A stretch of DNA of 64,000 bases. It comes from a virus. Taxonomy: Duplodnaviria > Heunggongvirae > Uroviricota > Caudoviricetes. The notes under the pieces are model-generated. The model was not told the origin of the DNA, did no database searches, and saw only the letters and a program-made list of their open reading frames with translations. Made by a program: the position numbers and the translations under genes. Below, piece after piece: positions 35,330 through 61,204 of this stretch (positions are counted from its first letter, which is position 1; each line of letters begins with the position of its first letter). The DNA is taken from IMG/VR virus record IMGVR_UViG_3300028592_000006, positions 1 through 64,000 of that record, one strand, 5' to 3'.

Positions 35330-35336
35330 TTACCTT

Positions 35337-37832: not shown

Positions 37833-37835
37833 TCC

Positions 37836-39517: not shown

Positions 39518-39551
39518 GTTGCCTGCATCCAACGGTTCAACCCAACAAATT

Positions 39552-40611: not shown

Positions 40612-40636
40612 TGATTCCGGGGCCGGGAAGGCACCT

Positions 40637-40999: not shown

Positions 41000-41001
41000 C
41001 C

Positions 41002-42212: not shown

Positions 42213-42280
42213 GTGAAAGCTGTGCCACACTCTAGCATGCTGGAGGCCACAAATCATACGCATGCCAAACCATTGAATCC

Positions 42281-42928: not shown

Positions 42929-42932
42929 GACG

Positions 42933-43196: not shown

Positions 43197-43250
43197 TTCC
43201 AACCGTGGTGGCCTGCATGCAGCGGGCTGCCCCTTTCCTTTCCCAAGACC

Positions 43251-44100: not shown

Positions 44101-44330
44101 CCAACCCATTGCAAACCCAGGTGGCGGGAAGCCACTACAAGAACCTGCCAATCCAGCCGGTCGAGTTTTGCCAGAAGAACCAGTTCAACTACTTCGAGTC
44201 GGCCGTGATCAAATACGTGAGTCGGCATCGAGAGAAGAACGGCCGGCAGGACATCGAGAAGGCCATCCACTTCCTCCACCTGCTGCTAGAGCTGGAATAT
44301 CCGGTTGAAATCCCATCAGGGAATTCCTGA
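44097..44330 (+). CDS. DUF3310 protein
   Basis: GSHYKNLPIQPVEF...FESAVIKYVSRHREKNG..DIEKAIHFLHLLLE matches the DUF3310 consensus. Confidence 0.65.
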   Translation: MTNPLQTQVAGSHYKNLPIQPVEFCQKNQFNYFESAVIKYVSRHREKNGRQDIEKAIHFLHLLLELEYPVEIPSGNS

Positions 44331-44349
44331 CCCGTCTGAAAACAAAGAA

Positions 44350-44382
44350 GCCGGCCCCGTGATGGGACCGGCTCTTTTTTTG
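44350..44382. terminator. Bidirectional Rho-independent terminator between convergent modules
   Basis: GCCGGCCCC-GTGAT-GGGACCGGC flanked by T-runs on both strands (TCTTTTTTTG; CTTCTTTGTTTT on the complement). Confidence 0.65.
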
Positions 44383-44390
44383 TTTCAGCT

Positions 44391-47300
44391 TTAGTCCTTG
44401 GGGAGCTGTTTCAACAGGTCTCTCCGTCGTGCCGAGCGGTAGTCCCGCAGGAACGGCAGCACCTCGCTGACCAGGTAGGCGGCAATGTCGAGCGGTTTGG
44501 CTTCTCCGACCGAACGACCGGCCAACACCGCCGCATCCACCGCGTCATACGCCACGCTGGTCGGGGCGGTCAGGTTGGCTGCCGCCTCCACCGCATTCGG
44601 CCGGTGTTCCCTCACACCCACCTTGTCGCGCTCATACCATGCCTCTGCCGGCTTCACTCCGGACGTGAGCGAGGCGGCACTCACCGCAGCATCATTCATG
44701 ATCGGCTTGATCATGCCGGTGATCGGAGAGTAACCGGCCAGCACCCCTGCCACCGGCATTGCCTGCAACAGCTCCATGCCGACCCGTGATGCAAGTTCAG
44801 CTTTAGCCGAGGCCAAAGAGGCATCCTTGTCCTTCCACGATTGGAACAATTCCTTCTGAGGGCCGACCAGCAGGTCCTTGAGCGCCGCCACGAACGGGTT
44901 GCTGTCCTTCTGGGCGGCGAGCAGGTCGTTGGCTTTCTTCTGTGCCTTCTTGGCTGCCTTCTCCTCGTCGTCACCTCCGAGCATGTAGAAGGCCATCAAC
45001 AGTAATGGCACCATGGTGTGGACCTTGCCGAACTGAAACAGGATGTTCTGACCCAGCGTGCCCACCATGTTCTCGATGGCGTCCTTCCTTGTCCGGTTCG
45101 GGTCCGGGTCGGTGTCGGGGTCGGTGGTCATCAATCCCGGAAGAAGAGCGGTCAGGTTAGAAGCGGTGGTGGCGGTGTGGTTGCTGAACCGCACCAGCGA
45201 CTTGAGCAGGCTCGACCATACCGGACTGTCAGAGTGGCTCTGGAACGGCATAGCCTTCTTGCTCATGTCCGACTGGCCCATCATGTCGTTGACCTTCATG
45301 GTGGCCATCTGGGTTGCTGCAATGGGGATCTGGCGGCTATTCAGCTCAAGCAGTCCGTCCACGTCGGCAGGGGTGTGCGGGCTTCCGCTGCGCCGCATCT
45401 CACCGAGTAACTCCGCAAGGAAGATGGCGCGGGAGATTACCTTCTCGCCCTTGCCGATGGTCAGGTTGAGAGCCGCTTCCCCGATGTTCTCATACTCCTT
45501 GAGGATCTTGCCGGCCCATGCCTTGCCTTTGCCGACCCCGAAGCGGAGCTGGTGCTTGAGTTCGTTCCTCGCCACGTCCTGGCCATCGACACCACGGAAG
45601 TTGACATAGACCGACACCTCCTTGGTGAAGGCGTTGACCTTGTCGTAGAACGTCCTGTCCGTGAACCGCGAGCTGATCAACCGTGGCAGGATGTGGAGGA
45701 AGTCCGAAGCCGTCTGCCATTCGCCGATGACCAGCTTCTTGATCGGGAAGAACACCGAGGGCGGGAAGGTCTGGTTCCACATCTGCTGTGCACTCGCCAG
45801 CGCCCGCACAATGAACACCGAGGACAAGAACCTCGTGGCCTCCGCAAACCCGGTGTTGACCACACCGATCTGCGAATCATTGAAGAGAAGGTTTTCCACT
45901 TCACCGGTGACGGCTGCAATGGCGACCTGGAACTTGCGCATGTCCTGCGAGTAGGCCGGACGCAACTGCATCTGTGGAGTGAAGATGCTGGCTTCCATCG
46001 GATCCACCACCGGCACCCCGTTCGGGCTCTTGATCCGTCCCAGCATCCTCCGGATCACGTCGTAGTTGGCACTGACGTTCGCCCGATACAACGAGTCCTC
46101 GAGGATGTTGAAGGGAGCCGATAGGCCGTTCAGGCTGATCGGCCGCAGGACCGAGGCATCCGCAGGGTTCTTCTCGTGCCGTCCGTAACCACCGTAGAAC
46201 GGCGAGTTCTTCATGGACACCACGTCCGCAGGGTCTGGAATCCACTTCCCTTCCTTGGTCACCCTGTGATCCCTTTTGGTCGGGTTGGCGGCATAGGCCA
46301 TCCGCAGCGGCACCGAGCCATACGTCTTCGGCGACGGGGTCATGCCGTCGTGCTTCCATTCGTTGTGCTGTTCACCACCCAGTGGGGTTTCCACCGGCTT
46401 GGACAACATTGCCCGGTGGACCGCCGTGGCGTTGTAGGCATCACCAAGTTGCTCGCGGATCACCTTTGCCATGTTCTCCACCGCGTCCCGCTTGCCGTCG
46501 CTGGTCTCCTTCAGGAATGCCTCCCTGAGCCCGGCAATCACCTTGCGGGCGGCAATGGCCTGTGCCTCTTCCTGGGTGGTGTTCTGGTTCTCGTAGATGG
46601 CGGTGCCGTAGTCAGCCATTGCTCCCGAATCCCTGATGATCTTCACCACTTCCTTGGCTAATGGCAGGTCGCGGATCAGGTCGAGATGGTTTGCATTCAG
46701 GAAGCGCTGCCCGAACCGGGAGAACGCCTGTGCCTGCAACTTGTCCAGGCTGGCAAGATCGCGCATCCCTTTGCTCAAGCCCTGATACCACTTCGTGAGC
46801 GCCTCGTTGATCGAGTAGCCGGAAGCATCCGACAAGCCGTCAAGCTGGGCTACCAGATAGGCCATGGCGTGGTCCTTGGCGTGCCGTCCGACCTTCTTGG
46901 CCTCCTTGGCGATGTGTTCCTGTGCCTCCTTGTGGGCTGCCTGGTGGCCCGCCCGTCCGGTGTTGCCGTCGAACCCGTGCTGGATGAATGCCAGCAGGTG
47001 CATGGCGGTCTCCCGTGCCAAGGCCGACTTGATGAAGCGCGAGCGCATCCGTCCATCCTGACCATGGGCATACCTGAGCAAGGCCTGGTTCACAGTTCCA
47101 TCCTGCACCGACAACCCGCTGACCAGCTTGGCCATCACCTGCTCGGCCTCAAGCTCCGCAAACACCCGGGCGAACAGGTCGATCAGGTTGAACTTCTGCA
47201 TGGCATCCTCGGAAGCCGCGAAGCTTCCATCCTCGATGGCCTTGAGCACCGCGTCGATCTCGTTGCGAAGCTCCTTCGGCTTGCCGGTCTTCTCGTCGAA

Positions 47301-50300
47301 CATCTCCGGCAACCCGTGGGCGTGCACCAGCTTCTCGACCAGGGAGCCGTAGAACTCCATCGCCTTCCGGGTGTTGTCCCCGTCCAGCTTCTTGTTGGTG
47401 CGCTTGGACACCACGAATTCCTCGAGTCCCTTCTTGAACTCACCGGAGAACAACTTGCCAGCCTCGACGATGCTCATCGTCTTGCCATCCGTCAGCTTGA
47501 AGCCGGTGCCCATCCAGTTGCCGGTGGGTTCCGCCGCATTGTCCATGAACGACGGACGGCCCTGGCTTGCTTGGAACGGTCCACCCACCGGATTGAATGC
47601 GCGCAGCACCAGATTCTCCAGCTTGCGGTTGACGTTGCGGGCGGTGATCCGTCCCGGAAATGCTTGCATCAGCCGTTGCTTGGCGTCGATTGGCAACAAC
47701 ACGATCTTGCTGCCGTCCACATCGTTCTCGTCGAACACCTTGCCGATCAGGTCACGACGTGCCCGGTAGTTCGAAGGAAGCCTCAACCGCTTGATCCGGT
47801 CCTTGCCCTTGGTGAATGCCATGGTTTCGCCGTTGGTGGCGAAGGCGATGGCCTCGGCGGTCATTCCCCTGAGCTTCTGTTGTTCTACTTCGCTGGCTTG
47901 ATCGAAACGCGACCGGACAATGGCGTCCTCCACCTCCGTGCGACGCACCGCTTCCTGCACCATCAGCATCGGGTTGAACCCGTTGAGAGTGTCGGTGGTG
48001 CCACGGATGCGGCGGTAGTGGTCGTCCACCCGGTCGTTGGCAATCTCGGTGAGTGCCATGCGGAGCGCTTCGCGCCTGACGTAGTAGTCCCTCTGGGCGT
48101 TCGGGTCGTTGTTATAGGCACGGGCGTTCTCGGCAATGTCCCTAGGACGCATGCCCGGGAAGGTCTCGTGGGCCGGGTCGATCAGCTCGATCTGGATGTT
48201 GCCGGACAGGTTCTTTCCGTCCGCCCCCTTGATGCCGCTCACCCGGCGATACTTGCCAAGCATCGTCCGTCCACCGGTGTCGAACTGGAGGGCTCGCTGG
48301 GCCTGCATGTTCTCGAGCTTCTTGCGGGCGTTCTCGAGCTGCCAGTTGGCATTGTCCCGTTCGGCCAGCTCCTTGCCGGTCATCAGCTTCAATTCGGCGA
48401 TCTGCCGTCCTTCCTCGGTGCTGAGAGCCAGCGATCCGATCAAGGCGTCCATCACCCCGCCCTGTTCCATCCGTCCAATCAGGGTGTCCAGGTTGTTGTA
48501 GATGTCGGTGTCGGTCATGCCTTGGGCTGCCTTGAGGAAAGCCGTGAGCTTCTCGCGGTGTTCGCGCTCCTGACCCTTCTCCTTGCCCTTGAGAGCCACA
48601 CCAAGGCCTCCGGCCAGCTCGGCGGTGAATTCCTCCAGCGCCTGGTCCATCAGGGGCTTCATGAAGCTCTGAGGGTCCAAGCCAGCCTCAAGGCGCTTGT
48701 GCTGCTGCTGCAACTCCTCGAAGTCCAGCGTGTCGGCATCACCTTCGATCAAGGGAACGTGCTGGCGGACCTTCACGTCCTTCAATCCAAGCTTCTTCAG
48801 CCGGTCGTTGACCGTGTCATTGACGATGGCGTTGATGAAGCGGGCCGACTTGTCGAACCAACGGATGTGGCGCTCCATCGCTTGCACGGCATCGGTCTCG
48901 GCATTCACGTCGAACCTGGCACGGGCGGCATCCCGGTCACGGATCAGGCGATACAGCTCGTTGAGGCGGTAGCTGGCTTGCGGCATCAGCTTGCCGAACT
49001 CGTTTTCAAGCCTCTTCTGAATCTGGTGGTTGGCCAGACGGGTCTCGTAAGCCGCACGGTCGTGGGTGCGGGTCGAAATCGAACGGGCCAGGTCACCGAC
49101 CAAGGCGGCAAGCTGCTCCTTGAGCACCGTGTTCTGCAAGTCCTCCACTTCCAGCACCCGTTCCGCCGTCAGCCTGAGTGGCTTGTTGAGAACCTCCTGC
49201 GCCTGCTCCATTTCCTTCTCAAGAGCCCACTGAGCCTCGTCCTGTCCACGGAGCGCATCCATCACCTGCTGCCGATACATCGGCAGGTTGGGGATCAGGC
49301 TTTCAGCCTCACCGAGCAAGGCGTCATCCAGCACCACTTCCACATGAGCCATTGGCACCTTGGTGGAATTCGGGTTCTTCCGCTGCGCCTGCCGGATCGC
49401 ATCGACCAGCGCCAGTCCGGCCTTGGAATCGACCGATGGCACCTTCGACAACCATGCCGACTGCTCCATGCCCCGGCGGACCATGTTCATCTTGAGCGTC
49501 ATGGTGGTGGTTCCACCGACGTTCGGGATGTTCAGGCGGTTGGCCTCTCCGACCAACAACAAGGTCGGGTCCTCGGCAATGGGTCGGTTGCGGGCCTGGA
49601 AGATCGGTCCTGCCGGCGATCCCGGTGGTTCACGGTCGAGGATTTCATGACGGGTCCGCACCTGGCCCTTCAGGCTCTTGCGGTTGGCAGGGATCATCGG
49701 GGATTCAACCCGTGGCAACAAGTCGTTGACCGCCTTGGCCCGCTCCAAGGCGCGGGCGAGATGGTTGAAGACCACCATGTCGGAAGGAGGAAGAACCTCG
49801 TTGTAAGGGTCCTTCTTATCCTCCTTGCGGGCACGGGCCTTCTCGCGCATGAACTCGCGGGTTGTAGCCTGTGCCACCTGAAGCTTCTCACCGGAGACTT
49901 CCACGTCTTCGACGGGATACTCGAAGTCTTCCGACTCCTGCTCTCCCAACCGGATGGCGACCTGATCAAGTGCCAGTTGATAGGGATCCTTGAGACGATC
50001 CTCGTCCACCGTGTCCTGTTCCAGGTCGTCCGAGTCCTCCTTGTCGAAGGAACGGAGCACTTGTTCGTGCATGTCCTCCAGATTGGCGTCCGTGGCGTCA
50101 TCAAGCTCGTAGGGGGCGTAGTCAGCAGCCACCTCGCGCAAGCGCCTCACAGCGATGCTGAGGGCATCCACGGCTTGATCCGACAAGCCGCTCTCTTCCG
50201 CTTCGTCAGGACCAAGGTAAACCTCGTCAAAGGCCGCCTTGTATTGCGGATTGGTCAGCAGGTTGGCCACCAGCAGCACATCCGATCCATACCCTTCCGT

Positions 50301-53300
50301 GAAGTTCACGGGGCTCATCAGCTCTTCGTTGCGGCTAATGCGCTGGAATTTCTCCAGTGCCCGCTGGACGAAGAACTTCTGCTCGGACTCGCGGAGCTTC
50401 GCCACATACTCCTTGAAGTGGGGAATCTTCAGCGTCTTGCCAACGTTGATGTATTCCTTGGTCACATCCCGCAAGGGATCGCCAAGCTCCTTCTCCATGG
50501 TCTCCACGTCAAAGGCCGGGGCAAACGTCTCACGGATGATCCCGGCAAGGCTTTCCACCTGTGCCCTGGCCGTTGGATCGTCACCATAGGACATCAGCAC
50601 CCGGTGGATTGCGGCTGCCTGTTCCTCGCGGCTCGCGCTGTCCTGCGGTGCCCACACGATATTCGGCTGGCCGTCCTTGCCTGGAATCACCCGCAGGCCC
50701 ACCTGCGATTGACCCATCCATTGCTCCTTGTCGGTCGGGAACACCACCAACGTCCTGCCGAGCATGTTGGTCAGCAACAACGAGACGGACGGGTTGTCAC
50801 CAAGGAAGATGTCATACTCGGAAAGGAACCGGCTGTCCTGCACGCCGAGCTTTCCTTCATCCATTCCCCTCTTGAACACCCGGGCAAGCTGGTCCTTCTC
50901 GTCCTGCGGCAGGTCGGAAGCCATCACCGCGTCCTGTGCGATGACGATTTGCTCGCCGGCATTGCGGCGGAACTCTTCAACCCGCTTGTCTTCCTTCTCC
51001 TTCTTGAACTCCAGCAGGTCGGCAAGGAACGACTCCGGATCAAAGCTTCCCGCGCTTGAAAAGCGGGACAAGCTCCAGCGCGGGTTCTTGTCGTAGAACT
51101 CCTGGGCAAGCAACTGGAATGCCTCGCCTTCCTCATTGCTGCCAGGAAACACACCCATCAGCCCGCGGACGACGATGTCCGGAATCTCACCGGTGCCGGA
51201 CAGGTGCTTGGTCATCACCATGCGCGTGAACTCGCGGGAGTCCTCGATGTTGCCTTCCGGGAAGTGGGAACGGAAACCGATGAAGGTCAGGGCCTTTGAC
51301 AGCCAGATCTTCATCCCCTTGTCGTTCTCGTTACGCAGGGCGAAGTCCTTGGCGGTCGAGGCATCGGTCACCTTATCATTCTCGAAGTCCGGCAGCGTCA
51401 CGCCGTGCTCGCCGGTGTCCGGGCGGTTTTGCGGGCGGTTGTCCGGGTCGAGGTCGTTGTAGGACTGCGGGATGACGGGCTCGAACCTTTCGTCAAAGCC
51501 GGAGTCCACCGGCTTGATGAAGGTCTCCTGATAGAAGGCTCTCCCGGCGCGGCTGTCCCCGGCTTCCGCCAGATCAAAGCGCTCCTGCTCGGTCATCCTC
51601 ACGTTGACCCGCTTCACCCGGTTGGCGATCTTCATCTCCTCGCGGCCCTTCTGGAGCTTGCGCAGATCCTCCAGCAGGTCGGAGGCATACAGCGATCCCA
51701 CCATGTAGGGGGATGCATTGGTCGCCATGTAGTTCAGGCTGAACTCGAGGCTGTGAATGGTCGGGATGTCCAACATCGAGTCCCGCAATTGGAGCATCTC
51801 CTCGTGATCCGGGCGGTAGGCACCGTCACGGATGGTCCGGATGGCTTCCTGTTCGACGTTGCGCTGCCAGTTGGCGTTGTTGAACTCCTTGACCATGCGA
51901 CGGGTCAGGCTCACCGCCGCGTTGGTCGCCCGCAGCGAGTTGACCAGGCCCATTACATGCGAGCTGCCGGCCGCCGGGGCAAGCCGCTGGTTGAAGGCCG
52001 TCAGGACATTGCTGATGCCACCCTTGAACTTCAGGTTGCCCTGTTCGTCCCTCGCGAAGCGATCCGCGAAGCTTTCCGCTTCCACGGTCTCGAAGAACTG
52101 CCCCATCTGGCCGAACAGGTGCTGCTTCATCTCCACCACGACCTTGGACAAGCCCTCAAGGCGTGGCTGGAGCAACAGGTTGGCACGGGCCGCCGGGCTC
52201 TGCCTGCCATCCATCTCGGCAATGATCTCGTCGGGATTCGCACGCTGCGCGATGTGGGCAATCCACTTCTCCGCCATGTCGATCACCTTGATCAGGTTGT
52301 TGATGCCACCGAGGTTGATTGCCTCCCCCTTCTCAAAGCGCCGGTCGATATCGAACATCTCGTCCATGCCCGGGAATTGCGGAAAAGCCATGCGAGGCGA
52401 CTCATAGTCGATCTGCTCGTATTCATTGAGGGTTCCCTCGAGATTGAATCCGGCACCTGCATGATACAGGTCGCGGTCGAAGGATGCCGGCAAGCGGTGC
52501 ATCTGGTCCGCAAGGTAGAACAACATGCGGCCGTAGCGCCCCGTGTAGGCCGCATTCGACTCGATGGCGCGCTTGTGCGCTTCGATCAATTCATGGACCT
52601 TGGAATCGTCCAGCTTGTTTGGGTTGCGCTGGTAGCCGGTGCCGGGCTTACCCGGTGGCAAGTGGCCTTCATGGTAGTCATGGCCGAAGGCATCCCCGGC
52701 TTCCACGGCTTCCGGGACATTCCTCTCGCGGAACTCAAACACTCCGGTTGGCTCTCCCGTGGCACGGGTGTCCTGCCAGCCAAGGCCGTAGTTCTCGGTC
52801 TTGTAGTCGTCGAACGAGCCAATGGCGCGGTCGGTCATGGACCGGAGCCGGGCGTTGTAATCGTTCACCGCCTTGAGATATTCCGAGAATTTCCGGTAGC
52901 GCTCTACCGAGACCGGGTCGTCAGTCGGCTTCAGCTTCGCGGCCTTCTCAAGCTCCGTGATATTGTTGGTCAGGTTGATCCGCTGTTTGACCAGTTCCTT
53001 GAACTCCTTGTGACCCTCCTGTCCTTCGACCAGGCTATCGGTGAGCGGGTTGTTGAACAGGTGGACCCGGGCGGCATTGACCACCGCATCCTTGAAGGCA
53101 TCGAAGGTCGGATAGTTCTCGGTGTCGATGAAACCGTCAGGATCAACGGTGACACCCAGCTTGGCGGCGGCACGGATCAGGGCGACCCGTCCACGGGGGC
53201 GGGAAACATCCTGCGACTGCAAATCCCGCAAGGCACCGGTGACCAGCATGGTCTCCATCCTGTTGATGCTGTCATTGACCCTTGCGAGCTCCTCGCGGGC

Positions 53301-56300
53301 ATTGCGAAGGACCGGCTTGCTCACATCGCGGGGTGCACCTTGCAGGATGAAGCCCATCAAGCCCGCGGGGTCGAACTTGTCGCCGCGCAGCCAGTTGAAG
53401 TATTCGTTCGGGTCGAACTCCAGTTCCTCCTCCTTGGCTTCCACGACCTGACGGGCAATGTAGGCGTCAGCCCACATCTTCTGGAATGCATCCTCGTCAT
53501 TGAGGGCATCCAGGGCCTTGTTCATCGCCTCAACGTCGTATTCCTTCCGTCCCTCCAACCACTTGGCGATTTCCGGATGGATCGACATCTCGAGGTTGTC
53601 GTTCACCACCACGATTTCATCCATGCCCGCCGCCGGGAAGATCTCACGCAAGTCGCGGATCTGCATCAGCGCCTCGCTGTGCTTCTTGGCCACCGCACGG
53701 ATTTCATCTTCTCCCTTGCCGGTGAACGTGCGGAGCCGGTGTTCCATGGTCTGGGTGACCTTCTCACGCATCTGGTCAACGTCGCCGCGCAGGTTGGCAT
53801 CGTTGTAGAACTGGTTGAGCCGGTCGAGCAATTCGAGGTGCTTCGGGTCCAGCTTGCTGCGGAAGAACCGCATGGCGAGGATCTTGCGCACCCGCTCAGT
53901 GTAGCGGCGGACCAGCTCGCCGATGGTCTTCATCAGCCTGGTGCCCTTGCCGTCCTTGCCGGTATCCTCCTGCATCGAGCGGATCAACCGGCGGGCATCG
54001 GCATTCGCCTGTTCGGAGTAGGACCCGGTGGTCCGCAACTGGTGAAGCTTTCGGATGAATTCATGGGCGATGAGCATCGTCTCCTCATCCGACTTGATCG
54101 CCTTCGGGTTCTTGCGGTCGAAGGTTGGCTCGCGGTGCGACAAGCGCTCCTTGACCGTCTCGCGGAAAATGTCGTGGAAGGGATGCTTGGTGTCCCCGGC
54201 CACTGCGGTGATCATTTTTTCAAGCTCACGCGGCTTGAACTTCTCCTGATCGACGGTGAGCAAGTGGATTTGCTCCTCGTCCACCCAGTTGGACAACAGG
54301 CGTGCCGCCTCAAGGGCCGCCAGCAGGCGGGTCCGCGGGTTGAGCGGGGCGTCACCGACAAGGCTGCGCAGCACCGCCAGCGTGCGCTTGTAGTCCACCT
54401 CCATGACCGGCCGCATCTCCTTGCGGGTTGCCTTCCCTTGTGGCTTGCCGTCCGGGAATTGCGAGACCGGCACCTCCACCTCACGAAAGGCCACCTGCAT
54501 GAAGTGCTCGGAAGTGGAGATGTTCTCCTCGTCGTCGATCTGCATCTCAACCGGGTCCGATGCATCCGGTGCAACTTCCTTCATCACCGCCTTGATGAGC
54601 TTCTTCAGCTCCTTGACCGCGGACTTCTCATCACCGCGCAACAAGGTTTCCAAACCCTCCTTGTCGGTCAGGTCCTTGGCCATCTGGATGAGGCGGGTCT
54701 TGTGCCACATTGCATTGGACCCGTTGAGCCTGCTCTTGCTTTCAGGATCGACGCTGAACTTCGCCTCCAGGTTGAACTTGAAGAACTCGTATTGTCCGTT
54801 CTCCACCTTGTGGAGCACCAGCACGTTGTCGGGGTCTCCTTCAATCGAGATGATGTCACCCACCCCCAGCGGAAGGCCCTTGCCCTTGGCCGGGGTGTAG
54901 ATGAACGACTGGGCACCTTCGACGATGAGAGGCACCTCACCGGGCTTTTCCTCCTTCTTCGACCACGTTCCTCCACGGTCATCCTCCTTGCCTTCCTCAA
55001 GGTTGGCCTTGCGGACGAAGTATTTCGGCACCTTCGATGGTGCTGGCTTCTCCTCCACCGGCTTGCCGCTGGCTTGTAATTTGATGCTCTTGCCCTTCGC
55101 GAGCTTCTCAACCTTGGAAGCAATGTGCTCCTCCTTGTCCTCAATCGAGTCGTCGGCCATCACCTCGTCGAGGTAGGCCGGCGAGATCCCGATTTGGCCG
55201 GTTCGGGTGTCGAGCCACACTCCTTCGTCCGACTTGTAACGCTCCTTGTTCTGCGAGAGCTTGGCGGATTCCGGCAGGTCGGCTTCCTCGAGTTCCGGAA
55301 GTTCCTTTTCGTCGAGGATGTCGCGAATGCCACGGACCACCGAGTCACGTTCCGCCTTGGAGCCGCTGTCAGCCCGCAAGGTAGGCTTGGAAGGCTCCTC
55401 CTCTTCTACTGCTTCGGTTTCAGCTTCTCCCTCAGTTGCACTGCCTGTTCCTTTGGAATCCTCGCCACTGCCTGGAGCCACGTCAGACACTCCTGTTCCG
55501 GCTTTGTTGCCACTGCTTCCATCACCTGCTGGCTTGGCACCTGTGCCAGGCTCATCAGTTGCCACAGTCCGAGCTGCGGCGTCTCCGGTGGTGGCTGCGG
55601 GCTTGGTGGCGGGAGTTGTGTTGGATTCATTGGTCTTTGATTCGGCTTTGGTTTCCTTGGTTGATGGTTCCTTGGCTGGTTCGGTTTCCTTGGCCCAGTC
55701 GTCGTAGAAGGGATCGGCACCGGGCAACGAGTCGTCGGTGGCTGCATCAGCAAAGCGCTCGGAGAGGAAGTTATGGGCCACGGTCAGCTTGGCGGCCTCT
55801 TCAGCACCGATGTGACGCTCGGTGGTGGTGCCATCCGGATTGACGGTGGTGAGCTTGGCTCCGGCATGGGAACGGCCGTCGATGGTAATCGGGGTGATCT
55901 GGACACCGGGGGATACCCGGACGGGCTTGTCTTCCTCCAGTTTCACGTCGGTGCGCCATTCCTTGCCGGCGGATGGCTTGTAGCCCATCTCATCAAGCAC
56001 CGCTCCGGGAGTGGCCTTTTCCTGGCCTTCAGTGGTGCCTGTGGCTGAGGATTGGCCTTCTTTGGTATCAGGAGCCACGCCGGTGCCGTCGAGCCCTCCT
56101 GAGCCATCCTGAGCGCCAATATCGACTTGGAGGCCATTGCGTGCCGCTGCGGTCAGGATACGGCTCTTCTCCTGCACGCTCATCTTCGGGTCAGCCAGCA
56201 CCTCCGCCACCCGCACAGCTTGCTCGCCAGCCACGTTGGCCAGCTTGTTGTGATCCTGGAATTGATCAACGTTGGCGACGATGGATTTCCACTGGTCGGT

Positions 56301-58349
56301 GATCTGCTCTTTGATTACCTGCTTGCGGGTGTCATCCTTGCCGAACAACGCCTTGCCCACCGACTTGGCATTGCCAGGTGCCGAGCCCATTGCCCCGCCA
56401 ATGGCACCCAGCACACCCGCCTTCACGTAGTCACGCCAGTGATGCTGGATGTTCTTGAAGCCGTCCTCACTCCACGTCTTGGAGTCATCCACCATGATCT
56501 GGATGGCGTCGGAGAGCGCTTCATCAAGCGCCTCCTCCGCTCCTTCCGCAAGGATGTCCGCTCCGGGTCCAAGACCACGCAATCCGGCCTGTGCCGCAGT
56601 CTGCCGCATCGACTTGCCGATGTCCTTGACGAACTGCTTGGTAAGTTCAGGCGACAAGCCGGTAAGCGCATCCTTGGTTGCCTTCATCCCCTTGACTGAA
56701 GCAATCGTGCCACGCATCCGCTGGACCAGGCTGGATTCCAGCTTTCCGCCCTTGGCTCCCAAAAGACGTTCCATGCCCGGTGCCACCTGGTTCATTACAC
56801 CCGTGGCAATGAGGGCTGACAGACCATCACTGACCCCTTGGATGGATGCCGCCTTGTAGGCTTCCTCCTTGCTTCCCGTTGCGTCGAGAACCTGCTTGTA
56901 GGTCCGGCCGAACGACATGCCGCTTGCTTGGGTTGCCCCCAAGTAAGCAGTAGGATCGGTTCCGGCCGCTTTGAGGAAGTTGAGGGTCTTTCCTCCAAGC
57001 GTGGTTGCCGCCTTGGCCCCGCCTTCTGCCGCCGCCGCCTCAGCAAGCGTCAAACCCTTGGCTGCCGCCTGTTCCGCCGCCTTGAGGCCGGCCGACCTGG
57101 TCGCCAGCGAGGTTGCTCCACCAAGCGCAATGAATGACCCGATCTGACCGACCAGCTCGGTCAGGTCACGGCGCTTGATGTCAATGCCGCCGGGAAGAGT
57201 GAAGGCCGTTTGGTTCTTGTATCCCTGCGAGCTTTGTTCCGCCAGTTCACCCCAGATCTGGGCGGGACGTGAAGCGACCTCACCCACCCCATCGACACCT
57301 GGAAGAACATCCAGTCCGGCACCGGCAAGCCACGTCGCACCCGTGCCAATCGCCATCATCGCGTCACGGAACTTGGTCGCCACCTCCGAGCCCACGCCAT
57401 ACGAGTCGCGGCTCATCCGGTCCTTGCGCTGGCGCAGGAAGCTCACCCCGTCGCCACCGGCAGCGGCATGGGCCTCATACTCGTTGTTCAAGGGCCGGTT
57501 GAAGATCGACTCCAGCGGGCCAGCCTCGGCGGCCGAAAACGTGTTGATGATCTCACCGATGTTCGCATCCACCGTGTCATGGTAGCGGTCGAGCATCATG
57601 GCCTTCTGGCCTGCATCGAAATCCGGAAGCTCCATGATGGCCTTCTCCATCTTGTCGATTTCGGCCAGGTTGTAGGGATTCATCACCGGTCGTCCCCCGA
57701 CAATGCGGATCATCTCGTCGTCCCCCATGGTGGAAGGATCGAAGGTCGATTGGGCGAGGTGGTTCAGGAATGCCTTCTTCTCGTTCGGATCAACTCCACG
57801 CTTCTGGCCACCGCCACCGGCAGCGAAGTCAAGGTAGTCCTCGTAGGACAAGCCGGCCTTGTCCGTGCCGGTATCCAGTGCGGTGCGCTCCTTGAGCCAC
57901 TCGTTGAACTGCGGAAAGCGCTCCTCACCCTTCGTCTGCGGGGCATTCATTGCTTCGCTGATCCACGGGGCGGGTTCCAGCTTGTCCTCAAGCTCGTTGT
58001 AAACCAATCCGCCGTTCTCATCCTTGGATGCCAGCTCAAGGACCTGCCGGGCACGCTCGAGGTATTCCTGGCCAGCCTGGTTCAAGCGGCCGGATTGACC
58101 ATGGACACCCACCCCCTCCCTGACCTTCTGTCCGTCACGATAAACATCCCGGTCCACCTTGGCATCCGGGTTGGACAGCATCGAGTCGCGGATGATCGCC
58201 AGCGCCTTGCCTGCCATCTTCCCGCGCTTGTCCGGGTTGTTCGCCCAGTCGTCGGAAAGCACCATGGTTTGCACCTTGGTCATGTCGGGAGCCGTTTCGG
58301 CAGGCTCGTCACCAAGCGGGACCTGGTCCCACGGGAGTTCTTCGTTCAT
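44391..58349 (-). CDS. Giant virion-module protein, 4,652 aa (function unknown; candidate internal/ejection or polyvalent protein)
   Basis: Single uninterrupted 13,959-nt ORF with protein-like composition; N-terminal ~900 aa Ala/Gly-rich, acidic T/P/E-rich linker, no P-loop or DxDGD seen; antisense ORFs 46686-51059 and 51405-55079 are R/L/H/G-rich artefacts. Confidence 0.85.
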   Translation of the reverse strand: MNEELPWDQVPLGDEPAETAPDMTKVQTMVLSDDWANNPDKRGKMAGKALAIIRDSMLSNPDAKVDRDVYRDGQKVREGVGVHGQSGRLNQAGQEYLERARQVLELASKDENGGLVYNELEDKLEPAPWISEAMNAPQTKGEERFPQFNEWLKERTALDTGTDKAGLSYEDYLDFAAGGGGQKRGVDPNEKKAFLNHLAQSTFDPSTMGDDEMIRIVGGRPVMNPYNLAEIDKMEKAIMELPDFDAGQKAMMLDRYHDTVDANIGEIINTFSAAEAGPLESIFNRPLNNEYEAHAAAGGDGVSFLRQRKDRMSRDSYGVGSEVATKFRDAMMAIGTGATWLAGAGLDVLPGVDGVGEVASRPAQIWGELAEQSSQGYKNQTAFTLPGGIDIKRRDLTELVGQIGSFIALGGATSLATRSAGLKAAEQAAAKGLTLAEAAAAEGGAKAATTLGGKTLNFLKAAGTDPTAYLGATQASGMSFGRTYKQVLDATGSKEEAYKAASIQGVSDGLSALIATGVMNQVAPGMERLLGAKGGKLESSLVQRMRGTIASVKGMKATKDALTGLSPELTKQFVKDIGKSMRQTAAQAGLRGLGPGADILAEGAEEALDEALSDAIQIMVDDSKTWSEDGFKNIQHHWRDYVKAGVLGAIGGAMGSAPGNAKSVGKALFGKDDTRKQVIKEQITDQWKSIVANVDQFQDHNKLANVAGEQAVRVAEVLADPKMSVQEKSRILTAAARNGLQVDIGAQDGSGGLDGTGVAPDTKEGQSSATGTTEGQEKATPGAVLDEMGYKPSAGKEWRTDVKLEEDKPVRVSPGVQITPITIDGRSHAGAKLTTVNPDGTTTERHIGAEEAAKLTVAHNFLSERFADAATDDSLPGADPFYDDWAKETEPAKEPSTKETKAESKTNESNTTPATKPAATTGDAAARTVATDEPGTGAKPAGDGSSGNKAGTGVSDVAPGSGEDSKGTGSATEGEAETEAVEEEEPSKPTLRADSGSKAERDSVVRGIRDILDEKELPELEEADLPESAKLSQNKERYKSDEGVWLDTRTGQIGISPAYLDEVMADDSIEDKEEHIASKVEKLAKGKSIKLQASGKPVEEKPAPSKVPKYFVRKANLEEGKEDDRGGTWSKKEEKPGEVPLIVEGAQSFIYTPAKGKGLPLGVGDIISIEGDPDNVLVLHKVENGQYEFFKFNLEAKFSVDPESKSRLNGSNAMWHKTRLIQMAKDLTDKEGLETLLRGDEKSAVKELKKLIKAVMKEVAPDASDPVEMQIDDEENISTSEHFMQVAFREVEVPVSQFPDGKPQGKATRKEMRPVMEVDYKRTLAVLRSLVGDAPLNPRTRLLAALEAARLLSNWVDEEQIHLLTVDQEKFKPRELEKMITAVAGDTKHPFHDIFRETVKERLSHREPTFDRKNPKAIKSDEETMLIAHEFIRKLHQLRTTGSYSEQANADARRLIRSMQEDTGKDGKGTRLMKTIGELVRRYTERVRKILAMRFFRSKLDPKHLELLDRLNQFYNDANLRGDVDQMREKVTQTMEHRLRTFTGKGEDEIRAVAKKHSEALMQIRDLREIFPAAGMDEIVVVNDNLEMSIHPEIAKWLEGRKEYDVEAMNKALDALNDEDAFQKMWADAYIARQVVEAKEEELEFDPNEYFNWLRGDKFDPAGLMGFILQGAPRDVSKPVLRNAREELARVNDSINRMETMLVTGALRDLQSQDVSRPRGRVALIRAAAKLGVTVDPDGFIDTENYPTFDAFKDAVVNAARVHLFNNPLTDSLVEGQEGHKEFKELVKQRINLTNNITELEKAAKLKPTDDPVSVERYRKFSEYLKAVNDYNARLRSMTDRAIGSFDDYKTENYGLGWQDTRATGEPTGVFEFRERNVPEAVEAGDAFGHDYHEGHLPPGKPGTGYQRNPNKLDDSKVHELIEAHKRAIESNAAYTGRYGRMLFYLADQMHRLPASFDRDLYHAGAGFNLEGTLNEYEQIDYESPRMAFPQFPGMDEMFDIDRRFEKGEAINLGGINNLIKVIDMAEKWIAHIAQRANPDEIIAEMDGRQSPAARANLLLQPRLEGLSKVVVEMKQHLFGQMGQFFETVEAESFADRFARDEQGNLKFKGGISNVLTAFNQRLAPAAGSSHVMGLVNSLRATNAAVSLTRRMVKEFNNANWQRNVEQEAIRTIRDGAYRPDHEEMLQLRDSMLDIPTIHSLEFSLNYMATNASPYMVGSLYASDLLEDLRKLQKGREEMKIANRVKRVNVRMTEQERFDLAEAGDSRAGRAFYQETFIKPVDSGFDERFEPVIPQSYNDLDPDNRPQNRPDTGEHGVTLPDFENDKVTDASTAKDFALRNENDKGMKIWLSKALTFIGFRSHFPEGNIEDSREFTRMVMTKHLSGTGEIPDIVVRGLMGVFPGSNEEGEAFQLLAQEFYDKNPRWSLSRFSSAGSFDPESFLADLLEFKKEKEDKRVEEFRRNAGEQIVIAQDAVMASDLPQDEKDQLARVFKRGMDEGKLGVQDSRFLSEYDIFLGDNPSVSLLLTNMLGRTLVVFPTDKEQWMGQSQVGLRVIPGKDGQPNIVWAPQDSASREEQAAAIHRVLMSYGDDPTARAQVESLAGIIRETFAPAFDVETMEKELGDPLRDVTKEYINVGKTLKIPHFKEYVAKLRESEQKFFVQRALEKFQRISRNEELMSPVNFTEGYGSDVLLVANLLTNPQYKAAFDEVYLGPDEAEESGLSDQAVDALSIAVRRLREVAADYAPYELDDATDANLEDMHEQVLRSFDKEDSDDLEQDTVDEDRLKDPYQLALDQVAIRLGEQESEDFEYPVEDVEVSGEKLQVAQATTREFMREKARARKEDKKDPYNEVLPPSDMVVFNHLARALERAKAVNDLLPRVESPMIPANRKSLKGQVRTRHEILDREPPGSPAGPIFQARNRPIAEDPTLLLVGEANRLNIPNVGGTTTMTLKMNMVRRGMEQSAWLSKVPSVDSKAGLALVDAIRQAQRKNPNSTKVPMAHVEVVLDDALLGEAESLIPNLPMYRQQVMDALRGQDEAQWALEKEMEQAQEVLNKPLRLTAERVLEVEDLQNTVLKEQLAALVGDLARSISTRTHDRAAYETRLANHQIQKRLENEFGKLMPQASYRLNELYRLIRDRDAARARFDVNAETDAVQAMERHIRWFDKSARFINAIVNDTVNDRLKKLGLKDVKVRQHVPLIEGDADTLDFEELQQQHKRLEAGLDPQSFMKPLMDQALEEFTAELAGGLGVALKGKEKGQEREHREKLTAFLKAAQGMTDTDIYNNLDTLIGRMEQGGVMDALIGSLALSTEEGRQIAELKLMTGKELAERDNANWQLENARKKLENMQAQRALQFDTGGRTMLGKYRRVSGIKGADGKNLSGNIQIELIDPAHETFPGMRPRDIAENARAYNNDPNAQRDYYVRREALRMALTEIANDRVDDHYRRIRGTTDTLNGFNPMLMVQEAVRRTEVEDAIVRSRFDQASEVEQQKLRGMTAEAIAFATNGETMAFTKGKDRIKRLRLPSNYRARRDLIGKVFDENDVDGSKIVLLPIDAKQRLMQAFPGRITARNVNRKLENLVLRAFNPVGGPFQASQGRPSFMDNAAEPTGNWMGTGFKLTDGKTMSIVEAGKLFSGEFKKGLEEFVVSKRTNKKLDGDNTRKAMEFYGSLVEKLVHAHGLPEMFDEKTGKPKELRNEIDAVLKAIEDGSFAASEDAMQKFNLIDLFARVFAELEAEQVMAKLVSGLSVQDGTVNQALLRYAHGQDGRMRSRFIKSALARETAMHLLAFIQHGFDGNTGRAGHQAAHKEAQEHIAKEAKKVGRHAKDHAMAYLVAQLDGLSDASGYSINEALTKWYQGLSKGMRDLASLDKLQAQAFSRFGQRFLNANHLDLIRDLPLAKEVVKIIRDSGAMADYGTAIYENQNTTQEEAQAIAARKVIAGLREAFLKETSDGKRDAVENMAKVIREQLGDAYNATAVHRAMLSKPVETPLGGEQHNEWKHDGMTPSPKTYGSVPLRMAYAANPTKRDHRVTKEGKWIPDPADVVSMKNSPFYGGYGRHEKNPADASVLRPISLNGLSAPFNILEDSLYRANVSANYDVIRRMLGRIKSPNGVPVVDPMEASIFTPQMQLRPAYSQDMRKFQVAIAAVTGEVENLLFNDSQIGVVNTGFAEATRFLSSVFIVRALASAQQMWNQTFPPSVFFPIKKLVIGEWQTASDFLHILPRLISSRFTDRTFYDKVNAFTKEVSVYVNFRGVDGQDVARNELKHQLRFGVGKGKAWAGKILKEYENIGEAALNLTIGKGEKVISRAIFLAELLGEMRRSGSPHTPADVDGLLELNSRQIPIAATQMATMKVNDMMGQSDMSKKAMPFQSHSDSPVWSSLLKSLVRFSNHTATTASNLTALLPGLMTTDPDTDPDPNRTRKDAIENMVGTLGQNILFQFGKVHTMVPLLLMAFYMLGGDDEEKAAKKAQKKANDLLAAQKDSNPFVAALKDLLVGPQKELFQSWKDKDASLASAKAELASRVGMELLQAMPVAGVLAGYSPITGMIKPIMNDAAVSAASLTSGVKPAEAWYERDKVGVREHRPNAVEAAANLTAPTSVAYDAVDAAVLAGRSVGEAKPLDIAAYLVSEVLPFLRDYRSARRRDLLKQLPKD

Positions 58350-58410
58350 GATGTGAGAAGGGAGCTTGTCACCCCCTGTTGGTTAAACAAAGGGGCACAA
58401 TGCCCCCAAA

Positions 58411-59811
58411 TCACTCGTCCAGCAGGTTCACGCCGTTGGTGCCCTTGCTGGCAGGGTTCGGTTGGATCACCTCAAGGATGCTGTCCACGGTGGACTGGAT
58501 CTTGGTCGGGTCCTCTGCGAATTCCTCGGCGTCGAAATCCTTGCTTTGCACCAGCGCCATCATCACCGCCTTGCGCATGTCCTGGGCATTCTTGCTCGGC
58601 AACGACTTCAGGATCTCGATCTGGGCCTTGGTCTTGGCTTCCGTGAGGGCCTTGCCCTTGAGGGTTGCCATGGCGTTCTTCAGATCCGCCACCTTCTTCT
58701 GGAGGTCCACGGAATCTTTCTGGTTCTGCAACGATGTGGAGCGGCGTTCCATCTCGGAATCGACCATCCCGCCAATCGTGTGGGCATCCATGCCGATGAC
58801 CGCCAGCTCGTCCTTGAGCTTGCCCATCTGCGATGGGTCCTTCGACTGCGCCATCTCCAACAGTCGGGGAAGGTCGTCGGCCAGGCGCTGGGACACGGTG
58901 CCAATGGTGTTGTTCATCGTGTGGGCGCTCTTGGCCAGCGCAAGGGTCTTGCCAAGCTCGCGGGTGACGGCCGGGTTTTTCTCCTTGGCTGCAAGGGCGG
59001 AGGCCGCAGCAAGCTGCGCGTTGAACTGGTCCGGTGGCAACGAGGGGTCGAGGTTGACGTTGTTCTTGCGCAGCCAGCTCATCTCCTTTGATCCTTCAAG
59101 CTCACTCATGTAAGTGGGAAGCATCGTCTTGCCACGCGACAATGATCCGATGAAGCCAGCCAACCCTTTCATCAGGCCGGCATTGGCAGGGTCCTCGGAC
59201 AGGTTGCGGGCGAGCATGACCAATCCCTTTTGCGAAGCACCATCAAGGTTGGAGCCACCGATGAAACGTCCGAGCAACTCGGTGTTGGCGAAGTCACCGG
59301 CATCGTCCGCAGCCTGCCATGCACTGCGCTCGCGCTTCACCTTGTCCAATCCTTGCAAGGTGGATTCAAGGGCGAGCTTTTGGCGTTGCTCACGGGTTTT
59401 TTCTTCAAAGTCCAGATCACGCTCGTCACCAGCCAGCTCCTTCGCCTTCACCCGGTTGGTGGCAGAACCAAGCACGTAGTCATCTCCAGCCTGAAGGGCT
59501 CCCATTGCCTCCTTGACCCGCTGGTTGTTCAACCACGCAGGGTTGTTCACCATGTCGTCGCGCAAAGCCGTGGAACGGGCTTCAGGGGTCATTCCTGCCG
59601 TCCCCTTCATGCGCTCCGAGAAAGCATCGAACTCGTCGGCCTCGGCAAAGGCGGCTTGTTCCTCACGGTCCAAGGCACGCAACGCATAGTCCTGCCGCTC
59701 GATGCCACGGCGCATGTCCATCAACTGTCCGAGCTGCATCATTTCCGGCAGCATGGCCATGTCGGCACGGCCTGCGGAAAACGAGTCGATGGGAGCGGAG
59801 TAAGTGGGCAT
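58411..59811 (-). CDS. Hypothetical virion-module protein (466 aa)
   Basis: Co-oriented and immediately upstream of the giant ORF; Ala/Lys/Glu-rich. Confidence 0.6.
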   Translation of the reverse strand: MPTYSAPIDSFSAGRADMAMLPEMMQLGQLMDMRRGIERQDYALRALDREEQAAFAEADEFDAFSERMKGTAGMTPEARSTALRDDMVNNPAWLNNQRVKEAMGALQAGDDYVLGSATNRVKAKELAGDERDLDFEEKTREQRQKLALESTLQGLDKVKRERSAWQAADDAGDFANTELLGRFIGGSNLDGASQKGLVMLARNLSEDPANAGLMKGLAGFIGSLSRGKTMLPTYMSELEGSKEMSWLRKNNVNLDPSLPPDQFNAQLAAASALAAKEKNPAVTRELGKTLALAKSAHTMNNTIGTVSQRLADDLPRLLEMAQSKDPSQMGKLKDELAVIGMDAHTIGGMVDSEMERRSTSLQNQKDSVDLQKKVADLKNAMATLKGKALTEAKTKAQIEILKSLPSKNAQDMRKAVMMALVQSKDFDAEEFAEDPTKIQSTVDSILEVIQPNPASKGTNGVNLLDE

Positions 59812-59830
59812 GGACGTTAGTTGAAGCTAA

Positions 59831-61204
59831 TTAGCGGGCAAGCAGGTTGGCTGCCTGCTTCTCAAGGTTGTCGGCAGCGGCAAACCGGGACTTGGCATCC
59901 TTGCGGAGAGCAAGCTCCTGGTCGTAGGCCGCAGCCAATGCCGGATCGTTTTTAGTCAGCGAGGTAATGTCAACCCGGCCCTTGATGGCTTCATTGATAA
60001 TGATCTGCCGCTCGCGTTGCTTCTGTTCCGGGGACTTCAGGCTGTAAGGGTTTCCGAACTCGCGTGCAGCTTGCTTGGCTGCGCTGTCGCGAATCCCCAC
60101 GCTTACCTTGTCGCCATATTCCTTTTCGTCGGCTTGACGCTGCTTTTCGATTTCATTCCGAATGAAACGACGACTCTCGACAAGCCGTCCGAGACGGGCG
60201 GACTCCTCCGGGGTGGCCTCGAATGGAATCTGGTTCTTCTCGTTGTCGGCAAGCAGGGAGGCAATCTCACTCCGGGACTTGTCCACCGATGCCATGCCAG
60301 AGGAAATCTGCTGTCCCAGATCTTCCGCCTTCGACTTGATGCCCATTGCCATCTTCATCAGGTCGGAGGGCTCATCAGTGCCGCTTGAGCCAAATGCTTC
60401 GGCCACCTTGTCCAATTCGGCTTGCTCGGCCTTGTCTCGTGCCATGGCTTCCGGAGTCGCCTCCTTGCCTTGGGAGTGTGCAATCAACTGGTCCTTGCTG
60501 ATGCCGAACTTCGCCCCGCGGGTGGCAGCACGCTCCAATGCGTCGGCATCCCCGCTCTTGAACAAATCCGAGCGGTTCAGGTCGTAGATGAACTTCTGGC
60601 GGTTGTCAGCCATGCCTGCCATCCAGCCGGGCTGGGCGGGTCCGTTCACCGGTCCATCACTCACACCGAGCTGCTCACGGGAGCGCACGGCACGATCCGC
60701 CTCGCTGTCGAGGTTGTGCTTGGGATCAATGGAACGGCCGTAGCCGGCACCGGCAGAAGCACGTGGATTCAGGGTGCGGGTAGCAGCTTCAATTTGCTGG
60801 CCCGCAGAGGGCATCACAGGGCCTTCGGCACCTTGATCTGGACGTGCACCCATCCCAACCGGGGAAACGCCTCCACGGCCCGTCATGGCGTCAATCTCGC
60901 GGCCTACCTGTGCTCCGGCCTGGCGTTGGGTTTCGGCACGGCGGAATGCTTCGGCGTCATTCTCCTCGGCGGAGGCAATGCCACCCTTGCCGATGCGGGA
61001 TAGCCCCATCGAATCCATCTGGTTGCCCAGCGCGCTGATCGCCTGGATGTCACCATGACGGACTGCGCGGCGGAATTGCCGCTGCATCGAACGCTCCACA
61101 CCCATCCGCTGGCGCTGGTCACTCGCCGCACGGCGCGAAGCATCAATGGCGCGGGAGTTGGCCAGCGTGCGGTCGTCCAGTCGTGATTGTGGTTCGTAGG
61201 CCAT
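59831..61204 (-). CDS. Hypothetical virion-module protein (457 aa)
   Basis: Long ORF in the minus-strand module. Confidence 0.6.
   Translation of the reverse strand: MAYEPQSRLDDRTLANSRAIDASRRAASDQRQRMGVERSMQRQFRRAVRHGDIQAISALGNQMDSMGLSRIGKGGIASAEENDAEAFRRAETQRQAGAQVGREIDAMTGRGGVSPVGMGARPDQGAEGPVMPSAGQQIEAATRTLNPRASAGAGYGRSIDPKHNLDSEADRAVRSREQLGVSDGPVNGPAQPGWMAGMADNRQKFIYDLNRSDLFKSGDADALERAATRGAKFGISKDQLIAHSQGKEATPEAMARDKAEQAELDKVAEAFGSSGTDEPSDLMKMAMGIKSKAEDLGQQISSGMASVDKSRSEIASLLADNEKNQIPFEATPEESARLGRLVESRRFIRNEIEKQRQADEKEYGDKVSVGIRDSAAKQAAREFGNPYSLKSPEQKQRERQIIINEAIKGRVDITSLTKNDPALAAAYDQELALRKDAKSRFAAADNLEKQAANLLAR

Follow-up and report, generated by a model that had tools for sequence, protein, structure and literature searches.

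In phage T7, the ejection proteins gp14, gp15 and gp16 are thought to cross the cell envelope ahead of the DNA, and gp16 bears a transglycosylase domain. The giant virion RNA polymerase (vRNAP, gp50) of phage N4 consists of an N-terminal domain with membrane helices, a low-complexity linker of 100 amino acids (aa), the RNA polymerase core and a C-terminal domain (PMC13434306). The two other N4 ejection proteins, gp51 and gp52, are encoded in the same operon as gp50 (Bellis et al. 2026, PMC13434306), and the N4 ejection proteins are without peptidoglycan hydrolase domains (PMC13434306). In the N4 genome of 70,153 bp, the gene for the 3,500-aa vRNAP (34523-45025, minus strand) is preceded by gp51 and gp52 and stands last in a leftward late block that converges on a rightward replication block. 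Polyvalent proteins of phages and conjugative elements are likewise predicted to be packaged, with domains of zincin-like, ART-PolyVal, nuclease and peptidoglycan-attacking types (Iyer et al. 2017, PMC5512222). Here we describe a giant gene of an uncultured virus (Duplodnaviria; Heunggongvirae; Uroviricota; Caudoviricetes), IMG/VR record IMGVR_UViG_3300028592_000006, positions 1 to 64,000 of which were analysed and are called the window. The gene has an ATG start and 13,959 nucleotides (nt); it encodes a single polypeptide of 4,652 aa and fills 21.8% of the 64,000-nt window, and the coordinates and the share of about 22% given in a first-pass annotation of the same DNA are confirmed.

The product is best read, with a probability that we put at roughly 0.6, as the largest of three virion-packaged ejection proteins of an uncultured phage clade with genomes of about 70 kb, and as a counterpart of N4 gp50 that lacks the polymerase. 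The reading is adopted because the gene holds an N4-like position, belongs to a three-gene operon free of cysteine, and has relatives with peptidoglycan-cutting or effector domains. The family would then be a new, polymerase-less variant of the giant ejection or polyvalent protein kind, with packaging and injection as deductions. The first-pass annotation had suggested a giant injected protein; the size stands, and injection is the best reading of the same position, operon and domains. The features on which the argument turns are the following.

44391..58349, minus strand: giant gene; product of 4,652 aa, 515.5 kDa, isoelectric point (pI) 5.46, no cysteine, 28 colinear homologues.
58411..59811, minus strand: upstream gene 1; 466 aa, no cysteine, hydrophilic, Ala-rich, pI 5.1.
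59831..61204, minus strand: upstream gene 2; 457 aa, no cysteine, Ala/Arg/Gly-rich, pI 7.8.
44348..44374, no strand assigned: bidirectional intrinsic terminator; 11-bp stem, T-runs on both strands.

The giant gene is the last of the minus-strand block, bounded by this terminator as had been noted at first pass, and the terminator is common to the converging late block (minus strand) and replication block (plus strand). By analogy with N4, upstream genes 1 and 2 are proposed to encode the smaller ejection proteins.

The coding signature of the giant open reading frame is strong and clear: GC content at codon positions 1, 2 and 3 is 0.63, 0.40 and 0.79, uniformly along the gene, which bears out the earlier impression of a protein-like composition throughout. 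Two long open reading frames lie antisense within it, one of 1,457 aa (46686-51059, plus strand) and one of 1,224 aa (51405-55079, plus strand). TTA, CTA and TCA, which are read as in-register stops on the opposite strand, account for 16 of the 4,652 codons in the sense frame. Because codon bias leaves the sense frame nearly without them, long antisense frames arise; the two are by-products of codon bias and not genes, and they had rightly been called artefacts at first pass.

Unusual length is the only thing that speaks for the giant frame being an artefact of assembly or gene calling, whether a chimeric contig, a collapsed repeat or a set of fused genes. Two other contigs, a Logan assembly of SRR8439261 (20,366 bp) and one of 50-200 kb, encode exactly the same 4,652-aa product; in the independent Logan assembly, from a run that no paper was found to mention, the giant gene has the same neighbours as in the window. 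Self-BLASTP finds no internal repeats in the protein, codon-position GC is uniform, and 28 homologues from unrelated samples are colinear over the full length. On these four grounds an assembly artefact is excluded, and we give the artefact reading practically no credence. The first-pass annotation had named two findings that would overturn it, of which an artefact was one; the second assembly, the absence of repeats and the 28 colinear homologues gave a negative answer here, and no full-length match to a tape-measure or vRNAP family, the other, was found.

The homologues were collected by an exhaustive phmmer search of 1.84 billion cluster representatives with aa 1151-2350 as the query, which returned the giant protein itself and 28 relatives; 27 of the 29 matches listed have E < 1e-10, and identity in the family is 30-50% over 1,200 aa. 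The relatives come from other metagenomes, most are 4.1-6.4 thousand aa long, and local BLASTP aligns them colinearly from N- to C-terminus. The surrounding loci were read for seven family members, the window's protein and six relatives. In every related locus read, a gene of 442-489 aa lies directly upstream of the giant gene (two are cut by a contig end), and where more upstream sequence was read, this gene is itself preceded by one of 408-603 aa. The giant gene is the last of its block in every locus that extends past it (L001, L003-L005, P0016 and P0003), and the converging genes beyond it include, in several loci, DnaB or primase, ERF, DUF932, MazG and RNA ligase. The contigs that carry P0016, P0010 and P0007 have lengths of 69-73 kb.

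Conservation among the relatives divides the protein into modules separated by variable positions, two of which we call slots.

56100..58349, minus strand: N module, aa 1-750; conserved, Ala/Gly-rich, acidic (pI 5.06).
55050..56099, minus strand: slot 1, aa 751-1100; acidic Thr/Pro/Glu/Ala-rich low-complexity linker, pI 4.56, no domain.
47994..55049, minus strand: central core, aa 1101-3452; acidic, pI 5.34.
54759..54944, minus strand: possible SH3-like small beta domain, aa ~1136-1197, at the start of the core; profile match at E 0.28.
47508..47594, minus strand: slot 2, aa ~3586-3614; no insert in the window copy, low predicted local distance difference test (pLDDT) score in the C-module model.
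44394..47993, minus strand: C module, aa 3453-4652; basic (pI 9.13), almost all helical.

The N module is 25-47% identical in 18-20 relatives by local BLASTP, with the conserved region running over aa ~80-750. Its Ala and Gly contents reach 18% and 15% in aa 401-600, and it includes glycine-zipper-like, moderately hydrophobic stretches at aa 330-349, 398-417, 501-526 and 644-661. The N-terminal ~900 aa had been described at first pass as Ala/Gly-rich and of low complexity; the first term holds, and the second gives way to a conserved module. The module matches no sequence in the PDB and shows no match to the N-terminal domain of the N4 protein, and by analogy with that domain we propose it as a membrane-anchoring head. 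The linker that follows had been placed at aa 950-1100 and is confirmed, over a somewhat wider region. Slot 1 is variable across relatives, with 350 aa in the window copy (aa 750-1100) and up to 1,581 aa elsewhere.

In the core, local BLASTP shows conserved blocks at aa 1101-1700, 1800-2250 and, more weakly, 2400-3000, and a variable region at aa 3000-3400. A small SH3-like beta domain is possible at its start, where the profile match is weak and a local motif, Y..TP..G....G..V.I.G, is conserved. An AlphaFold2 model of aa 1601-2800, built from an 18-row alignment, has a pLDDT of 66 and a predicted template modelling (pTM) score of 0.47, with the individual domains well predicted. As modelled, this part of the core is a chain of helical bundles without a polymerase fold, and a Foldseek search with the model against 350,542 PDB chains gave no match at E <= 0.001.

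These results bear directly on the question of whether the protein is an extremely diverged vRNAP of the N4 type, with a T7-like domain hidden in the core that would serve early transcription after injection. The gene position, the size and layout of the genome, the trio of cysteine-free proteins and the domain plan are all as for N4 gp50; the early region shows no sigma-70-like promoter on the plus strand, and no other RNA polymerase is seen among the window proteins scanned. In addition, aa ~2050-2055 have the family consensus QTLAGR, which is similar to the T/DxxGR motif (TRVGR in N4, QSPAAR in the window copy). In several members, however, A, E, Y, W, G or M stands in place of the Arg of this TLAGR-like motif, and no counterpart is seen of N4 motifs A (YVEADGVTNG), B or C (LKIFDGMNIG). 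The only conserved Asp residues in aa 1900-2800 are 2194 and 2708, neither in a strand-turn context. PHROGs, phmmer and four module profiles give no match, although the PDB copy searched contains the full-length N4 vRNAP, and hhalign comparisons with gp50 return probabilities below 1%. The pieces of the core outside the models, aa 1101-1600 and 2801-3452, comprise 500 and 650 aa and are too short or too variable for a polymerase of ~1,100 aa. The motif set of a T7-like single-subunit RNA polymerase (T/DxxGR, A, B and C) is not found in the giant protein, nor are the double-psi beta-barrels and DxDGD motif of the crAss-like two-barrel enzymes. No polymerase sequence or motif was found, nor a polymerase fold in the modelled core (aa 1601-2800), and a hidden polymerase is, in our estimate, very unlikely.

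The C module is the best-conserved part of the protein, with 27-48% identity over the aligned region (aa 3415-4650). It has hydrophobic stretches at aa 4163-4203, 4435-4459 and 4519-4551, and its model (pTM 0.75) is a compact body of several bundles and not one long coiled coil. No known fold matches it.

The shape of the C module weighs against what we regard as the most serious rival, in which the giant protein is the tape measure of a long-tailed phage, setting tail length, being ejected first and carrying cell-wall hydrolases. Tape measures are long, helical and ejected, and those of some siphoviruses carry peptidoglycan hydrolase domains. The giant protein resembles them in being very long, helical, cysteine-free and Gly/Ala-rich with hydrophobic patches, and some of its relatives have peptidoglycan-acting domains. 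It differs in gene position, since it stands last in the late block and is followed by a terminator or converging genes, not by distal-tail or baseplate genes; in family matches, since Pfam and PHROGs show no tape-measure, tail-tube or chaperone family; and in its compact multi-bundle C module, where an extended coiled coil would be expected. The only structural hint nearby is a podovirus adaptor. At ~1.5 A per residue, moreover, proteins of 4,100-6,400 aa would imply tails of 600-950 nm, to our knowledge beyond those of known phages. Since it fails on four counts (gene position, family matches, the shape of the model and the tail length implied), the tape-measure reading appears quite unlikely.

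The relatives differ from the window copy mainly in what fills the two slots, and the inserts include recognizable cargo domains. YkuD domains are found in the slot-1 inserts of P0013 (29.4 bits) and P0004 (26.7 bits), against a Pfam cut-off of 23.4, and weakly in that of P0016 (19.3 bits, same cut-off). A CHAP domain in P0017 scores 25.1 bits (cut-off 26) and a PD-(D/E)xK domain in P0012 scores 26.6 bits (cut-off 22). Zincin-like peptidases are indicated by an HExxH motif in 9 of the 28 relatives, with an SprT-like match in the P0002 insert (20.7 bits, below the cut-off) as the sole support from Pfam; the motif is absent from the window copy. A transmembrane-like helix often comes before slot-1 domains and precedes the YkuD domains. 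Slot 2 is filled in four relatives with inserts of 250-340 aa, and just past it an ART-PolyVal domain (29.7 bits) is found in P0014, a fragment cut by a contig end; Pfam finds no match in the slot-2 inserts of P0010 and other unaligned pieces. In the window copy both slots are empty, and Pfam, PHROGs and NCBIfam detect no domain. The first-pass annotation had reported no hallmark motifs, which is true of the window copy and not of the relatives, where zincin-like, ART-PolyVal, YkuD, CHAP and PD-(D/E)xK domains occur.

Some inserts combine cargo types. In slot 1 of P0016, P0019 and P0012, a nuclease-like PD-(D/E)xK domain shares the insert with an HExxH domain; the PD-(D/E)xK-like motif of P0016 and P0019 was recognized by eye, and a Pfam match exists in P0012 only. 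The P0016 insert has an HExxH motif, the weak YkuD match and the PD-(D/E)xK-like motif, P0012 has its PD-(D/E)xK match together with an HExxH motif, and P0022 has an HExxH motif with a YkuD-type GC motif and no Pfam match. Close relatives differ in cargo combination, and this suggests, from sequence comparison, frequent domain swapping at fixed slots.

The giant protein has no cysteine among its 4,652 residues, where about 63 would be expected at the 1.36% cysteine of the window's other genes. The 466-aa and 457-aa proteins encoded upstream also have none, while the next three upstream have 5, 2 and 2. In loci L001, L003 and L005 the giant protein and the products of the two upstream genes again have no cysteine, and genes further upstream encode some. 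N4 presents the same distribution: gp50, gp51 and gp52 have no cysteine, and gp53 has 4, gp54 3, the portal 2, gp65 11 and the terminase large subunit (TerL) 7. Eighteen of the 28 relatives are cysteine-free. Among the others, the YkuD catalytic cysteine (S/HGCINL) is present in five, of which P0016 also holds three other cysteines; P0017 has the CHAP catalytic cysteine (PWCTTF); P0009, P0015 and P0019 have cysteine in the C-terminal region; and the fragment P0005 has four. Total absence of cysteine apparently marks ejection proteins, both N4 gp50-gp52 and the three terminal late genes of this clade. Since such a trio occurs in this clade as in N4, lack of cysteine could be used as a simple, general sequence criterion to pick out ejection proteins of uncultured phages.

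The cysteine pattern, together with the cargo, also bears on whether the protein enters the virion at all. It might instead be a non-packaged late product made from the end of the late operon, for instance a scaffold in the cytoplasm, a factor in defence or counter-defence, or a protein associated with the cell surface or with lysis. Its place in the virion is predicted, it has no recognizable structural domain, and its conserved helical scaffold has no assigned function, all of which would suit such a protein. A non-packaged role leaves unexplained, however, why cysteine is absent from the giant protein and exactly its two upstream neighbours, as in the N4 trio, and why the YkuD or CHAP catalytic cysteine is the sole cysteine of five relatives. 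Peptidoglycan-cutting domains that follow a transmembrane-like helix make sense for entry, and the commitment of ~20% of a 70-kb genome throughout the clade argues for an essential role in the virion or in entry. We consider a non-packaged protein unlikely.

Database searches place the family outside what has been described. The giant protein has no match in Pfam, PHROGs or NCBIfam, where MuF, SNF2 and methylase domains in particular were not found, and no match by phmmer at E <= 10 to all PDB sequences, those of solved ejection proteins among them. Four 7-sequence module profiles searched against PDB sequences returned only noise, including ribosomal protein S11 and the weak SH3 match mentioned above. 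No match came from 50,697 GenBank phage records by megablast or tblastn, and no relative from IMG/VR in four scans that used tiles of the protein. With two modelled modules also lacking a fold match, the label "undescribed" attached to the protein at first pass is justified. The family, its ~3,900-aa conserved helical scaffold and its fold-novel C module are new in the libraries and papers searched, as is the polymerase-less N4-like arrangement; the kind to which it belongs, giant multi-module phage proteins delivered from the virion, is already known.

Several observations weigh against an ejection protein of the N4 kind. The protein is known here from genes alone, and its presence in the virion and entry into the cell are predicted; that it lacks cysteine and ends in a basic C-terminus correlates with an ejection role but does not prove it. 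No membrane-spanning helix is recognizable in the giant protein (best 19-residue hydrophobicity 1.5), and no enzyme is recognizable in the window copy. The structure models cover aa 1601-2800 and 3453-4652, with ~2,250 aa (aa 1-1600 and 2801-3452) outside them. Comparisons by hhalign of the giant protein's module profiles with gp50, and of the upstream proteins with gp51, give probabilities below 1%, and in local tblastn no window open reading frame matches N4 25-70 kb, a region that spans the late genes plus the final ~400 nt of the DNA polymerase gene. The window has no portal, capsid or tail genes, and its structural neighbours amount to a weak SU10 adaptor match and a weak TerL match.

If the giant protein is an ejection protein, delivery could proceed as follows, where packaging, ejection, exit order, membrane anchoring and DNA binding are all drawn from the N4 analogy and the anatomy of the protein. 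The capsid would hold a few copies, each a chain of small helical bundles, loosely folded. After adsorption, the 457-aa and 466-aa cysteine-free proteins would exit first and form a conduit across the envelope, and the giant protein would leave next, N-terminus first. Its glycine-rich, moderately hydrophobic N module would lodge in or at the inner membrane. The flexible acidic linker would serve as a cargo slot, occupied in relatives by YkuD, CHAP, a zincin-like peptidase, a PD-(D/E)xK nuclease or an ADP-ribosyltransferase and empty in the window's phage. The helical core and the basic C module would pass through and refold in the cell, where the C module may grip the DNA end that enters first or may have targets in the host. 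This full picture, an N4-style machine built around a non-polymerase bundle chain of more than 500 kDa that threads through the tail, with an N-module anchor, two fixed slots for interchangeable enzymes and a C module that brings or guards the DNA end, is tentative, and we would put its chances somewhat below even.

The remaining features of the late region are listed here.

61249..62193, minus strand: 314-aa protein with a weak match to the SU10 (podovirus) adaptor; 5 cysteines, outside the cysteine-free trio.
941..2719, minus strand: terminase large subunit; weak phrog_2 match, E 2.9e-7.
58391..58407, minus strand: GC-rich hairpin followed by a T-rich tail, in the gap from the stop codon of upstream gene 1 to the giant ATG.

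The SU10 adaptor match (E 1.3e-3) does not reach the Pfam cut-off. None of the 50,697 phage records holds a homologue of TerL at E <= 1e-5. TerL is encoded on the same strand (minus) as the giant gene, and therefore one late block probably runs from TerL through ~6-9 kb outside the window and on from 64000 to 44391. PHROGs, applied to ten structural neighbours in the related loci, matched only one family of unknown function. The hairpin at 58391..58407 may be an attenuating or leaky terminator, by which the giant protein would be made in few copies. No Shine-Dalgarno sequence precedes the giant ATG.

The converging replication or early block includes the following genes.

25050-26123, plus strand: SPFH/Band-7 protein.
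26230-27072, plus strand: Cas4-like exonuclease.
31716-32735, plus strand: DUF932 protein.
37836-39140, plus strand: DnaB helicase.
41314-41997, plus strand: MazG-like pyrophosphatase.
42281-42928, plus strand: vWA-domain protein.

The window open reading frames scanned include no recognizable DNA or RNA polymerase, and the window has no tRNA genes. Matches to sigma-70-like promoters are at or below chance (1 against 3.4 expected in 3700-12000; 0 against 2.9 expected in 43000-60000), with none on the plus strand of the early region, and a search of that region for repeated promoter-like motifs yielded nothing convincing. A strong hairpin at 10044-10079 (plus strand; 16-bp stem with 10 GC pairs), within the early plus-strand block, is probably a terminator or processing site. 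A/C-rich 'AACCAACCAC..ATG' leaders, and not Shine-Dalgarno sequences, stand before many start codons (for example 11241-11257, 14112-14128, 3774-3791 and 6141-6158), a hint that the host may initiate translation without depending on such sequences.

Proteins of this family are among the largest phage proteins on record, each taking about one fifth of its genome. If the non-polymerase N4-style machine is real, it would represent a previously unrecognized class of phage DNA-delivery proteins and a new uncultured clade of ~70-kb phages. If the proteins are packaged and ejected, passage of a giant multi-bead protein through a tail channel of ~35 A would not be tied to RNA polymerase, and the N4 strategy would be older or more general than the Schitoviridae. 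With one scaffold that carries different cargo or none, the family is a natural comparison set for the passage of megadalton-scale proteins through channels, and it enlarges the "dark matter" of phage proteins by a large C module of novel fold and by ~3,900 aa that are conserved but unannotated.

Among known systems, the T7 gp14-gp15-gp16 set is similar in being encoded by consecutive late genes, with one large member and a cell-wall-cutting domain, which in this family is found in the relatives. The giant protein differs in being 3.5 times the size of gp16; the YkuD and CHAP domains are not lytic transglycosylases, and the window copy has neither. The likeness to N4 extends further. In both phages, a giant gene ends the late block and faces the replication block in a genome of ~70 kb, two smaller genes come before it, and all three operon products are cysteine-free. 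Both giants are single polypeptides (3,500 aa in N4, 4,652 aa here) of multi-bead architecture, in which an N-terminal domain, an acidic linker (350 aa here), a large core and a basic C-terminal domain follow one another with pI values of 5.3, 4.8, 5.2 and 8.5 in N4 and 5.1, 4.6, 5.3 and 9.1 here. The differences are that neither the giant protein nor its upstream neighbours show sequence similarity to gp50, gp51 or gp52, that the giant protein is 1,150 aa longer and its modelled core has no polymerase motifs or fold, and that its relatives carry peptidoglycan hydrolase domains. The seven hallmark genes of the Schitoviridae encode DNA polymerase, major capsid protein, portal, the gp67 tail protein, TerL, the small terminase subunit and vRNAP (PMC10654107); the window's phage does not show this set, its TerL having no phage homologue and no open reading frame matching the N4 late region, with the portal and major capsid protein region lying beyond the window.

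Polyvalent proteins, which are linked to portal-terminase packaging and predicted to be delivered with the DNA, are also very large phage polypeptides; of such a packaging system the window shows the weak TerL match, on the giant gene's strand, and the weak adaptor match, with the portal outside it. The zincin-like HExxH, ART-PolyVal, nuclease and peptidoglycan-attacking domains of the relatives are among their cargo types; YkuD is not mentioned in the text of PMC5512222. The window copy differs in having no effector domain, and ~3,900 aa of it are an unannotated helical scaffold, not a chain of known domains. Two features that define polyvalent proteins, at least two disparate enzymatic or effector domains and a zincin-like metallopeptidase hub, are accordingly lacking in the window copy (which has no HExxH); the first is partly present in P0016, P0012 and P0022, and for the second, nine relatives have the HExxH motif. 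Since its members carry zincin-like, ART-PolyVal, YkuD, CHAP and PD-(D/E)xK domains, the family as a whole appears, from its sequences, to belong with the polyvalent and ejection proteins.

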